A stretch of 64,000 nt of DNA from Elsinoe ampelina (taxonomy: Eukaryota): the NCBI GenBank assembly GCA_010093995.1, contig ML992507.1, forward strand, positions 1,361,868 through 1,425,867, in the 5' to 3' direction. This document shows positions 912-39,150 of the stretch, piece by piece; position 1 is the first letter of the stretch; every line of letters begins with the position of its first letter. The position numbers and the translations under genes were made by a program. The notes under the pieces are model-generated. The model made no database searches. It was not told where the DNA came from and saw only the letters and a program-made list of their open reading frames with translations.

Positions 912-3455
912 ATGTTGACGCGACAGATCTGGCGTGGCCGGGGCTGCGCTCTGCAGCAACAACGACTACTCCGCCGACCAGGACCACAAGGTCATGCCTG
1001 GCGAAGATGCGCTTCCTCGGAGACTGGCGATAACAGAACTGGTCACATAGAAGCTGGACCCAATGAAGGCGTAATCTTCTTCAACAATGTATTTCCACTG
1101 TCATTCCAATGGCTGTTCCGGATACCCTTCTTCACTGGCGAGATCACTGCATCACGACTACTAAAGTCGTCGTTTGGGAATGATCCAACCCAGGTCATGA
1201 ATGCTGCTCGAGATGGATTGACCACCGAGGCCGGAAAAGCGCCTGCAGAAATCATTGAAGTGCTGCCACGGATGAAGGAAGGGGGGGCATTTATCAAATT
1301 CTCCCATTCTGGTAGCACTACCCCTGGTCAGATACAGGAGACTGTCTCCAAGTACTTGCGGGAGAAGAGCGTGCGCCGTCCACTTCTCTCGTTCCATGGC
1401 GTGTCAGCAGGACTAGTCAAAGGCAAGCCTTGGGTAGAGGACTTGCATCGGCTGCCCAGCCAGAGGGTAAAGGTCGAGTTCTGCCCAACCACACCTGGAG
1501 AGCAAGCCGCAGAGTTGTCTCAGGAGGATCTCTACAGCTTCTTCAGACCGTATGGAAAGCTCGCCGATATCATCTCCCAGCCACAAGATTCCAAGGTCGT
1601 GCCTAGATACGCCTACCTGGACTATGCAATCACGCGAGAAGCGGTAATGGCCAAGAACTGCATGCACGGGTTTATCTTGGGCGAGTCACAGGGGGGAGGC
1701 AAGACTGGCACGCTTCTTAGGCTCTCGTACGAAAAGAAGCAACGCACGCGATGGATCTGGGACTGGATCAGTGGTCACACCAGGATTGTCATCCCGCTAC
1801 TTGCTGCACTGGTCGCGACCATTACGGTCACTGTCTTTGATCCTATCAGGACATTCTCCATCAAAACCCACATCACAAGATCTCTACATCTTGAAAATTA
1901 CAAGATCTTCAGATGGCTACGCAGTCGGACGCAAGACTTCGTCGACACATTTAAGAAGCGTATTGGCGTGGCAGAGGCGGCGGGCATGCAGGCTATCTGG
2001 GAGGATCGCAGAGAGTCTATCGAGCAGATCCAGACGTGGTTGATGGAAACGGCCGACACATTCATAGTCGTTCAAGGACCTCGTGGATCCGGCAAGAAGG
2101 AGCTGGTGATTGATCAAGCACTGAAAGACAGGAAGTACAAACTTGTGATCGATTGCAAGCCGATCAAAGAGGCAAGAGGTGATTCCGCCACCATTAATGC
2201 GGCGGCAGCAGAAGTCGGTTACCGACCTGTCTTCTCCTGGATGAACTCAATAAGCGGACTTGTCGATTTAGCTGCACAGGGTACAGCCGGCATCAAGACT
2301 GGCTTTTCAGAAACACTCGAGAATCAACTTGTCAAGATCTGGGCGAACACTTCCGCGGCACTCAAGCAGATTGCTCTCGAAGGTCGCAAGAAGGACGACA
2401 AGGATGCGAAGATGAGCGACGACGAATATTTGGAAGCTCATCCCGAACGCCGACCCGTCGTTGTCATTGACAACTTTCTGCACAAGAGTCAAGATGGCAC
2501 GATCATCTACGATAAGATCGGAGAATGGTAAGTTCTGGCAGAGACACGGGAAGGATCAGACTGACAAACTACCAGGGCTGCATCTCTCGTTACATCAAAC
2601 ATCGCCCATGTGGTCTTCCTTACTCATGATGTGTCATTTTCCAAGTCACTAGCGAAGGCGCTGCCAGATAGAGTCTTCCGCACCATTCCGCTATCGGACA
2701 CCTCGCAAGAAGCTGCAAAGCGATATGTTGTGAACCACCTGGAATACGACATGGCTGATGCAGATGCTGGAATCAAGAAGCTATCTCCCTCTCAGCAGCG
2801 TCGTGATCTGACCGAGCTAGACGAGGTTCTTCCACTCCTGGGAGGTCGTCTGACGGATCTGGAGTTCCTCGCTCGCAGAATCAAGACCGGCGAGACACCT
2901 CGAAAAGCGGCCAAGGAGATTATTGAGCAGGCCGCGAGTGAGATCCAGAAGCTATTCTTAGCCTCCAGCAGCGAAGAGAAGCGGTCATGGACGCCACAGC
3001 AAGCATGGCTTTTGGCCAAGCAACTCGCAAAGAACGACGACCTGCGATACAACGAGATTTTGCTTTCCGATGCCTTTAAGACCGGCGGCGACAAAGCACT
3101 TACGGAGTTGGAGCAAGCAGAATACATCTCGATCCAGTCTCACGGGGGTCGGCCTTATAGCATCAAGCCCGGCCGACCGGTCTTCTCTTCTGCTTTCCGA
3201 CGTTTGACAGAAGACTCTGTCCTGTCCAGCAAGCAGGAGATGTCGCTTCTTTCGGAGAGTATCAAGGCGGAGACACAGACGATCGAGAAGTGCGAGCAGG
3301 AACTACACTTCCTTGGTGAGCTGCCGAAACAGCCGGCTGAGCTTACGGGAAGGGTGCAGTGGTTGCTTGGGAAGATATATGCCAGTCAGGTCAAGATTGA
3401 GGGGTATGAGAAGCAGCAGGGCGAGCTGAAGAAGATTTTGCTTAGCGAATACTAG
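912..3455 (+). CDS. YME2: Mitochondrial escape protein 2 (RRM plus RNA12 P-loop domain); 2 exons
   Basis: Mitochondrial-type N-terminus, PRMKEGGAFIKF, RRM, TM helix, VQGPRGSGKKELV, RPVVVIDNFLHK and LGGRLTDLEFLARRIK. Intron 2528-2575 (GTAAGT...CTGAC...CAG) joins ORFs 912-2531 and 2610-3455 in frame. Confidence 0.93.
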
Positions 3456-4009
3456 GTCGCTGGTCCGAATATGATGTTTCGATGCCTCCGTTGGGAACAA
3501 TAGCGGATGAGTCGCGAATTGTCCTGGATCCAGTGGACTTAGTTGAGTGGAGTGAAAGGTCACGTGTATGGAAGTCAGGCGGCGTCAGAACTGCTAGTTT
3601 TGGGCAAGGCAGTGAAGTCGGAATGCGGCATCATGATATTTAGATAACGACAGACACCACTCAGTTGAATGAACACACGTCTACTCTTCCGGGCTGTGTA
3701 AAACCGTCAACGTTGTTGAGGCCGAGGAGAAGGAGAGAGAGAGAAAGAGAGTCACGCGTGTTTTGAGCCTCTCACGTGCCAAGGCCGAGTCCAATCATCT
3801 GCGGCCTTGAACTTCAGGGCCGCGACTCTTTATTCCACAAACTCATCACGTTCTCTCGACAACTGACCTCCCTCTTCGAACGACTGCTGCTGCTGCCTGC
3901 TGTGCTGTCTCTAGACCGACACTCTGCGACCTCGACGCTAATTCCTTTCTCAACCACAGATCCAACCTATCGCCTGATTCCGTGATACCCTGAAAGACAC
4001 ACATCAACC

Positions 4010-4983
4010 ATGGCCGGTCAAGAGTGGTTAGTCCTCGCTACACGAGGCGATAGCCAGTCGCCTCACATACGGGAACAGTACTAACTTGGGCTACAGAGTA
4101 ATATCCCACAAGCACACTATGCGCATCCTCACCTCGCCCGACACTCCGCAGCCTGCTGTACGCCCAAGACAACGTATACTGATCACGCCATCTTAGATTC
4201 GACTACCTTTTCAAGCTTCTGCTTATCGGCGAGTCTGGTGTCGGAAAGTCCTGCTTGCTCCTTCAGTTCGCAGACCAGACATACACAGACTCATACATTT
4301 CCACGATCGGTGTCGACTTTGTAAGAGCAGAGACAGATTAGGGCGCTCTATCAGGGCTGACTTGGGCTAGAAAATCCGCACAATCGAGGTCGACGGCAAG
4401 CGCATCAAGCTGCAGATTGTATGTCAAGATGGGGAGAAGTGGCATTTTTCAGATGGCTGACAGGTTATACAGTGGGATACCGCAGGTCAAGAGCGCTTTC
4501 GCACCATCACCTCCTCATACTACCGCGGCGCACACGGTATCTGTATCGTAGCGGACGTTACCGATGCCAACAGTTTCGAGAACGTCAAGGTCTGGAACGG
4601 AGAGGTCGAGCGCTACGCCAGCGAGGGAGTACAGAAGTTGATGCTCGGTAACAAGTGCGATCTTGCAGACAAGCGTGTGGTCGACTATGAGCAGGGATCG
4701 GTACGGACTTTGTCCTCATATTCTCCGCAATAATTATCTCTGACAAATGCTACAGGAGGAAGCCCGCAAGCATGGCATGCAATACCTCGAGACCTCGGCC
4801 AAGAATGCAACCAACGTCGAGCAAGCCTTCGTCACCATGGCCAAGCTCATCCGCGACCACATCGCCAGCCAGCCAACCATGACCTCAGACAAGGCCACTC
4901 TCGACGTCGGCCGTGGCCGCGCCGTCAACCAAAAGTCGGATGGGATCTTCGGTGCCGCCACACCCAGCTGTTGCCAGCAGTAA
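4010..4983 (+). CDS. Rab1/Ypt1-like small GTPase (divergent). Exons 4010-4023, 4197-4320, 4371-4418, 4473-4700, 4756-4983
   Basis: Spliced product [26 protein letters not shown]...[14 protein letters not shown]...[26 protein letters not shown]...GNKCD...ETSAK...CCQQ. All G-boxes and a CC prenylation motif are present. Confidence 0.92.
4024..4196 (+). other. Stwintron (spliceosomal twin intron), [D3,4] type: internal intron 4027-4096 interrupts the donor of the external intron
   Basis: GTG|GTTAGT...TACTAAC...CAG|AGT. Removing the inner intron creates donor GTGAGT. The outer intron has branch TACTGAT and a TAG acceptor at 4196, and the reading frame is restored (GA|A TTC GAC TAC). Confidence 0.8.
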
Positions 4984-5935
4984 ACGTCTTACACCAGACC
5001 ACACCAGACTGCATGGCAACCATCCCCTTCATACCCAGACGAGCACGTAATGTCCCTTCCCCGCCCACGCTCGCCTTCCACCAGTCTGCATCCCATCTTA
5101 GACCAGCTTTCCCCCAGGCTGAACACCCTCCCCTTTTCTCCACCGGCTAGGGATCTTTTCTGCACCAGGCGTACTAGGGTCTTTTCACCACATCAACCTC
5201 CACCCCACGGAATGAAGAGCGGTTTTTTCGTCATATCACAAGTGCGTCTTTTCTTCTGCTCGTGGCTTCGAGGATGCATGCGGGACGGGAGGGAGGGGGG
5301 ATGGTAGTGGTAGATAGGAATCTTTCTCGGTCCTCCCCTAGCACATCCTTACTCTATCGCGTCTATTTGTCTGTCGCGGAGACAGGAGAGGGGGGAGGGA
5401 TGGGGAGTTTTGTATACACGGTGGTTGAATTATTGTGTCTTGACTCACGTGCTATTGGGTGAAGTGACACTTTGCTTGCAGGTTTTGACGGAGGGACTAT
5501 GACATGTACATGTATTGTTCGTCCTACTCGAAGCGCTGTGGTACATGTGGCATGAGCCCGCCTGACTCTCCTCTATGCTTCTCCCTCTACTCTTCCGATG
5601 CGGTGAACATCCTCCTTCCCCGTCTTCCGCCCACAGGACCATGTCGCAGCAGACTATTCATCGCCACCGCCATGTATCTCTTTTGTTCTCGAGGCGACCG
5701 GTCTCCCATGGTTTCTGTTGTTTACCAGTCAATCTGCCACGACTGTCCCAAATGCACTCAGAGGAGCACAAATCCCATGTCCCTCGTCACCATCTTCATC
5801 CAGGCCGAGTGCACCCTCCCCCTCACCCTTCCCAGTCTTTCAACGTCCAATCTATTCCTCCCGTCGAACCCGTCCCCGTTCCCATATCACTTCCCCCATC
5901 TAGCTCCTCACCCCCCACCCCCTCCCTTCCACCAC

Positions 5936-37793: not shown

Positions 37794-39150
37794 TTACTAC
37801 AGCGTATAAAGGCTGTTATGCCTTATGCTCTCCCTTATACGCTCTAGTAGTATAGTCTCTACTAGCTTGTTAATCTCCTTCTAGTTAATCCTCTCCTATT
37901 TGTACCTAATAGCTGCCTTTAATTCGTCGACTAAGGTATAGTAGTAGTTCTTAACACGTTATTTAAGGATCCTCTACACATTCTTAATAATGTTAAAGTT
38001 AGGTAACTAAGGGCAATTAGCGTACTAGTAAAAGCCTCTATACCTCTCTAGATAAGCCTTATATTGCGCTACAATGTTGTTTTTAGTTCTTGTGCTATAA
38101 CTACTATTATTGTCCTCGAGAAGCATAAAGAGCTAGTGCTTTACTTTAGCCTTAAGCTATGCCGGTTCGATATAAGGGTAGAGGATCTTAGATTCTTAGT
38201 AAGGTACTATACTTATATAAGGTTACTAGTAGCCTTTAAAGAGCAATAATTAGGCTTGTAATAAGGGTGCTTATAAGCCTCCTTATTGTAATAGCAGTGC
38301 TTACACATTAAAGGCCTTATATCACCGAGTATAGAGTAGTTAAGTAGGTTAATACTATACTCTTTAGAGTATAGTAATTATAACGTGACTTTTCGTGAAA
38401 TTTTCGTGTTTTTTGATGTTTTTACGTGTATTAGTAAGCTCCTTTTATAATCTAAAGTATTTTTTCTATACTATAAAAAAATCTACATTTTTTGGTACTA
38501 CTTTCGCTTACGTAATCCTAGATCCTGATTTTTAGAAGAAGAAAGAAATTTGAAATCACTACTAAAAATCAGGATCTAAGATTACATAAGCAAAAATAGT
38601 ACTAAAAAATGCAGAATTTTTGATAGTATAGACAAGATATCTTTATTAGTAAAATACGCTTACTAATACACGTTAAAATATTAAAAAAACACGAAAATTT
38701 CACGAAAAGTTACATTGTAATTACTATACTCTAAAGAGTATAGTATTAACCCACTTAACCACCCTAACCGAGTAACTAGCGCTCTTTCTCCTCCGTCTCA
38801 ACTGCTGGTTCTAGTGACATCTCTTCGGTGTTAATATAGTTATAGATAAAAGCTATACTCTTAGACTTATTATTAGAGTTAAAGAATACTATATCTAACT
38901 TATAGCTATAACTAACTATAGCCTAGTAGTGTAGCTAACTTCCTTATGCCCTCTTCTTAAACTAGATATAAGTCTTATAGTAGCGCTCCTTCTTATTATA
39001 GATAATAACTATAGCCCTCTATAACTCTATTAAGAAGTGTACTTTATCTATAAACTATACTACTCTCTAGAACCTCTATAGCTTAGTATAGTACTCCTTG
39101 TAAAAGGCCTATTACGCCTTTTTAACTGCTTTTTTTAAGTAGCTCTTTAT
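37794..39150 (-). pseudogene. RIP-inactivated, 5'-truncated Tc1/mariner-type DDE transposase
   Basis: Reversing C>T/G>A changes gives F(T)D(E)VHF at about 39046, LLEDN(D)S(GHG) at about 38112, NCP(QS)P(D)FNII(E)NV(W)RILK at about 37960-38020, and a Tc1-like C-terminus. Many TAG/TAA stops. Confidence 0.85.
38332..38766. mobile_element. hAT-type foldback MITE (435 bp) inserted in the Tc1 relic
   Basis: About 204-bp inverted arms (38332-38535 and 38562-38766) with a 26-nt spacer, TAGRGTRG termini, and an exact 8-bp TSD ACCGAGTA (38324-38331, 38767-38774). Confidence 0.88.

Follow-up and report, generated by a model that had tools for sequence, protein, structure and literature searches.

The first intervening sequence of a Rab1-paralogue gene in Elsinoe ampelina is likely a donor-split spliceosomal twin intron (stwintron) of type [D3,4], i.e. 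one in which a complete internal intron separates the third from the fourth nucleotide of the donor of an external intron. The gene lies on the forward strand of the analysed DNA, a stretch of 64 kb (64,000 nucleotides) referred to here as the window, to which all positions refer. Judged by the arrangement of its splice signals, the segment 4024-4196 probably needs two successive splicing steps for its removal. The layout of the gene is given below, where X1, X2, X13, and X6 denote the assembled contigs of four sequencing runs.

3846 to 4023, + strand: exon 1, comprising the 5′UTR and 14 coding nt (ATG at 4010, 3′ end ..CAA GA)
4024 to 4196, + strand: whole intervening sequence, 173 nt, candidate [D3,4] stwintron, in phase 2 within the codon for Glu-5
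4024 to 4026, + strand: GTG, 5′ half of the split external donor, as read from the sequence; the hexamer at this place is GTGGTT
4027 to 4096, + strand: candidate internal intron, 70 nt, with donor GTTAGT (4027-4032), branch TACTAAC (4079-4085), and acceptor CAG (4094-4096)
4097 to 4099, + strand: AGT, 3′ half of the split donor; GTG and AGT together give GTGAGT
4097 to 4196, + strand: remainder of the candidate external intron, with branch TACTGAT (4177-4183) and acceptor TAG (4194-4196); 103 nt including GTG
4197 to 4320, + strand: exon 2, from contigs; P-loop GESGVGKS, Pfam Ras family (E = 5.3e-12)
4321 to 4370, + strand: intron 2, 50 nt, donor GTAAGA; joint in X1, X2, and X13
4371 to 4418, + strand: exon 3, from contigs
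4419 to 4472, + strand: intron 3, 54 nt, donor GTATGT; joint in X1, X2, and X13
4473 to 4700, + strand: exon 4, from contigs; Pfam Ras family (E = 6.1e-26)
4701 to 4755, + strand: intron 4, 55 nt, donor GTACGG; joint 4699→4755 in X1, X2, and X13, with the cut read one place rightward
4756 to 4983, + strand: coding part of exon 5 with the stop codon, C-terminus ..CCQQ; the transcript contig runs past 5300

The coordinates claimed in the original prediction for the nested intron anatomy were checked against the sequence and are all exact. The internal acceptor CAG (4094-4096) is also the first AG past the branch TACTAAC. At the sequence level, the segment displays the features that define stwintrons of class [D]: an internal U2 intron, an outer donor interrupted by it, and a canonical external intron once the internal one is excised.

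Evidence for the spliced product came from the assembled contigs of the four runs, which were aligned to the window. X1, X2, and X13 derive from three studies of the same organism, and X6 carries another organism label. The RNA origin of the runs is a guess, with which spliced contigs and uncovered introns agree. Roughly two thirds of the sequence words of 3800-5300 occur in the contig sets. The junction 4023→4197, which skips 173 nt with GT..AG borders and had been predicted as the final splice joint, is present in the contigs of all four runs; the mature mRNA accordingly lacks the whole intervening sequence, as is required of a stwintron. The pieces flanking this junction show 0 mismatches in X1, X2, and X13. 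Those of X6 carry six mismatches in 3857-4023 and one in 4197-4293, and this set is therefore assigned to a close relative. Contigs start at 3846 (X1) or 3857 (X2, X13, and X6) and, except in X6, proceed without mismatch to 4023. Because the contigs begin at these positions and no upstream ATG occurs within 3846-4009, the first exon and the start codon are those that had been assumed. With the first intron and introns 2-4, four introns were RNA-verified in this analysis, and the joined reading frame encodes 213 residues with the N-terminus MAGQEFDYLFK.

For stwintrons, the authors who described them take as experimental criterion a splicing intermediate ('splinter') from which the internal intron alone has been removed. 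The junction 4026→4097 of the predicted intermediate is absent from the assembled contigs of the four runs; such contigs drop rare forms. Likewise, the bins 4055-4156 are uncovered by the assembled contigs of all four runs, and the sequence of the intron interior is that of the window, as the RNA contigs do not cover the intron. An assembly error could in principle have produced the appearance of a split donor within the intron, the true donor being, e.g., canonical, and the missing coverage of the interior by all four contig sets would be compatible with such an artefact. However, exons and contigs agree over more than 1,100 nt with 0 mismatches, and the error would have had to create an entire 70-nt intron with perfect signals rather than a single-base change. 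We regard an artefact of this kind as highly improbable.

One further contig deserves mention. Record 12 of X6, 315 nt in length, aligned to 4194-4271 with nine mismatches, and eight unmatched pyrimidine-rich letters precede the aligned TAG. Spliced Ypt1 mRNAs, unlike this contig, align from 4200 or 4204. The record may represent an unspliced Rab paralogue with an intron that ends at the position corresponding to 4196.

To assess the quality of the splice signals, the published stwintron search model was rebuilt, with its 24 accepted donor hexamers (all GTNNGN), branch DYTRAY, acceptor HAG, and stated spacings; the same source describes a strict bias of fungal donors at positions 1, 2, and 5 (PMC9024468). 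The minimum internal intron length in the stwintron test was set to 42 nt. Since GTGGTT is not an accepted donor, the 173 nt of 4024-4196 fail the single-intron form of the model. They fit one of the five donor-split forms, namely [D3,4]. Both component units agree with the canonical intron model: the internal 70-nt unit with its listed donor GTTAGT, and the rebuilt 103-nt external unit with the donor GTGAGT, which is listed as well. Each of these two donors matches the consensus GTAAGT at five of six positions. The outer hexamer GTGGTT matches it at three of six, lacks the G at position 5 (G5), and is outside the 24-donor list, which bears out the earlier view that its direct use would make a poor donor. 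The donors of introns 2-4 have four to five of the six consensus matches, G5 in all cases, and are all listed.

The observed joint could also arise from an ordinary single-step intron whose weak donor GTGGTT is cut at 4023|4024, the nested signals being incidental or unused. One-step splicing would yield the same mature junction 4023→4197. Non-consensus donors are known in fungi, and those without G5 occur there at low frequency. Against this explanation stand the properties of GTGGTT just described (3/6 consensus matches, no G5) and the presence, 3 nt further downstream, of a donor with 5/6 matches that would be a competitor for U1. The gene's other three introns, moreover, are 50-55 nt long and have listed donors. 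A third argument comes from the frequency with which the nested signals would appear by chance, which was estimated in several ways. When both strands of the 64-kb window were scanned with the five donor-split models, position 4024 gave the sole match, compared with a mean of 0.325 matches for the five types together and of 0.025 for [D3,4] in 40 dinucleotide-preserving shuffles of the window. The window contains 2,915 natural GT..branch..HAG segments with lengths of 120-230 nt, of which 4024-4196 alone fits. When the interior of the verified intron was shuffled while GT and the terminal 20 nt were kept, 43 of 300,000 sequences fitted any type and nine fitted [D3,4]. When GTGGTT was fixed in addition, i.e. 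when the weak donor postulated for the single-step intron was granted, a nested intron rebuilding a listed donor appeared in just 86 of 300,000 shuffles. The nested arrangement is more than chance, and we consider a purely single-step intron improbable.

Other ways of using the same signals can be judged by their products. If the donor at 4027 were joined to the acceptor at 4196, GTG would be left in the mRNA, in frame, and translation would end as MAGQE-stop. Removal of the internal unit alone also gives MAGQE-stop. Only the complete removal of the 173 nt is productive, and this is the form seen in the RNA contigs. Pairing of donor 4027 with acceptor 4196 was rejected as the account of the mature mRNA, as it contradicts the observed joint and creates a stop. 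The same holds for two introns around a 1-nt microexon, an alternative that the original prediction had dismissed as unproductive: its computed product contains a stop codon, and the observed joint differs.

The signals, the product, and the reading frame of the stwintron are directly observed; from them we infer an intermediate and which of the two reactions comes first. In the proposed first step, U1 would recognise the strong donor at 4027 (GTTAGT), which by intron definition would pair with the nearest branch and acceptor (TACTAAC..CAG), leading to excision of the 70-nt internal intron. Pezizomycotina pair nearest splice sites, and for this reason the smallest possible intron, here the internal one, would be excised first (PMC7138796). 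GTG (4024-4026) would thereby be ligated to AGT (4097-4099), forming GTGAGT as a canonical donor. In the second step, again an ordinary U2 reaction, TACTGAT..TAG would be used and the 103-nt external intron removed to give 4023|4197.

Two-step and one-step routes might also coexist, with most molecules passing through two reactions and some through one. The published cases provide a precedent: the complex intervening sequence of Lipomyces starkeyi can be excised by one reaction or two (PMC7138796), and infrequent direct use of distal sites is described for [D1,2] stwintrons (PMC9024468). In L. starkeyi, however, the abutting donors are both functional, whereas the outer donor in the Rab1 paralogue is non-canonical until it is rebuilt. 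A mixture of routes seems unlikely to us. Also unlikely is a regulatory role, in which the segment would be the first [D3,4] stwintron and its two-step route would also act as a switch, the choice of acceptor for the donor at 4027 setting the output of the Rab1 paralogue; for the earlier suggestion that the arrangement gates expression, we found nothing in support.

Some additional sequence properties of the segment were noted. In the 4027-4096 unit, the internal donor GTTAGT and the branch core ACTAAC are exact reverse complements, and the stretch between donor and branch contains an 8-bp hairpin (4044-4051 with 4057-4064). The predicted fold of the internal intron has an energy of -20.1 kcal/mol (z = -2.05). 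As 6 of 200 shuffles fold equally well, the signal for a special fold is weak. The donor/branch symmetry is reminiscent of Hypoxylon stwintrons, for which an 'underlying symmetry' has been reported, but is again a weak signal here.

Other classes of intron content were considered and rejected. A hosted snoRNA or other RNA was discarded, as 4024-4196 has no Rfam match at E<=1. A repeated introner-like element was discarded as well: there is no second copy in the 64-kb window, and the best other match spans 12 nt. Just 3′ of the split donor, the hexamer ATATCC (4101-4106, + strand) resembles a U12-type donor, a likeness that we judged to be due to chance. A U12-type intron starting there is incompatible with the observed junction. 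Pezizomycotina are not known to possess the minor spliceosome.

The host gene (4010-4983, + strand) encodes a Ras-family GTPase with the P-loop GESGVGKS and the C-terminal end CCQQ. All three of its long exons (2, 4, and 5) have matches to PF00071, the Ras family of Pfam. The top non-orthologous matches of the protein are fungal Ypt1/Rab1 with 60-73% identity; by its GTPase domain and its nearest similarity, the protein belongs to the Rab1/Ypt1 group. The canonical Ypt1 mRNA (MNPEYD...) was found as separate contigs in the same runs. In database searches with the exon-5 peptide and with P0002, identities above 90% were obtained for two clusters only, each consisting of six sequences, from Elsinoe australis and Myriangium duriaei. 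The protein from M. duriaei (P0002) has 213 aa, 93% identity over exon 5, and the same N-terminus, MAGQEFDYLFK. As all other matches were generic Ypt1/Rab1 with at most 73% identity, the host gene appears, by sequence comparison, to be a Rab1 paralogue confined to Myriangiales (Elsinoe, Myriangium) in the database searched. Metagenome contigs were searched with the exon-5 peptide too. Among the 80 loci kept there was no orthologue (best identity 59%), and all of them were either generic Rab1 loci from other eukaryotes or transcripts lacking introns.

The protein from E. australis (P0001) shows 95% identity over exon 5 but is annotated with 943 aa. Directly upstream of the Rab gene and on the same strand, the window contains a YME2-like ('mitochondrial escape protein 2') gene at 1197-3488 (+ strand). 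Residues 1-743 of P0001 align to this gene with 84.6% identity, and residues 736-943 align to Rab exons 2-5, with exon 1 and the twin intron skipped. On the basis of these alignments, P0001 is a mis-annotation in which the YME2-like gene, supplying the first ~735 residues, was fused to Rab exon 2 and the exons that follow. The original prediction had stated that gene finders would mis-model the locus; P0001 supplies one example, but the first exon with its 14 coding nt could alone cause such an error.

Elsewhere in the window, an AT-rich island was observed at 38001-39000, with a GC content of 0.30-0.32, a TpA/ApT index of 1.70-1.95, and a (CpA+TpG)/(ApC+GpT) index of 0.46-0.49. Judged by thresholds for such indices, we take these values to be a signature of repeat-induced point mutation, so that the island probably represents a degraded repeat.

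If the intermediate is confirmed, the split between donor nucleotides 3 and 4 will join the demonstrated stwintron types. Intron definition in filamentous fungi would then also have one more natural test case, as the mRNA is cut precisely at 4023 despite a strong donor 3 nt away from the true exon end. A practical warning for annotation follows from the public model of a close relative, which fuses two genes at this locus. No new question is opened, as both the phenomenon and its logic have already been described.

The types of stwintron listed as demonstrated in the literature consulted comprise (i) [D1,2], (ii) [D2,3], (iii) [D5,6], (iv) [A2,3], and (v) an arrangement in which the internal intron adjoins the donor (PMC5639578, PMC9024468, PMC7138796, PMC12403724, PMC6616335, PMC5587772). 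Types other than [D1,2] are rarely met, according to a paper from 2025 (PMC12403724). The type lists in the introductions and related passages of this literature do not name [D3,4]. The intron of the Rab1 paralogue is thus a probable new positional variant, with the donor split 3/4, of a known phenomenon.

The closest parallel is with the [D1,2] stwintrons, found in lipS and dhaoS of Aspergillus nidulans and, in 117 instances, in Hypoxylon sp. CO27-5. They need two consecutive standard splicing reactions, and automatic annotation frequently gets their loci wrong (PMC5639578, PMC9024468, PMC5587772). As proposed for the present case, the 5′ donor of one U2 intron holds another, complete U2 intron, and the units are small. 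The two differ in the position of the split, which is G|TRWGY there and GTG|AGT here. Use of the distal site in [D1,2] leaves 1 nt and shifts the frame, whereas in the Rab1 paralogue it would leave 3 nt, which keep the frame but create a TGA. Furthermore, the 'sister' stwintrons of Hypoxylaceae have sequence-similar copies, whereas none is present in the 64-kb window. Two other donor-split stwintrons, [D2,3] in bioDA of Sordariomycetes and [D5,6] in the reticulon-like gene rtnA, occupy old intron positions and have been substantiated both by RT-PCR of their intermediates and by conservation over a wide phylogenetic range (PMC5639578, PMC6616335, PMC7138796). Their split points differ from that of the present case, which is known from its sequence and its final junction.

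The complex intron of L. starkeyi, for which an origin by 'stwintronisation' of an existing intron was proposed (PMC7138796), also has two donor elements close together at its 5′ end. In the Rab1 paralogue, a single base distinguishes the internal donor (GTTAGT) from the rebuilt one (GTGAGT), which may be compared with the abutting donors of L. starkeyi. There, however, the outer donor is intact and one-step excision is possible, whereas the outer donor here is split. Stepwise removal is also known from long animal introns, in which the first reaction of recursive (ratchet-point) splicing regenerates a 5′ splice site. The whole of that donor is located 3′ of the first acceptor and becomes joined to the exon, and the introns concerned are very long. 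In the candidate [D3,4] stwintron, by contrast, half of the donor would be an upstream intronic remnant, and both units are short.
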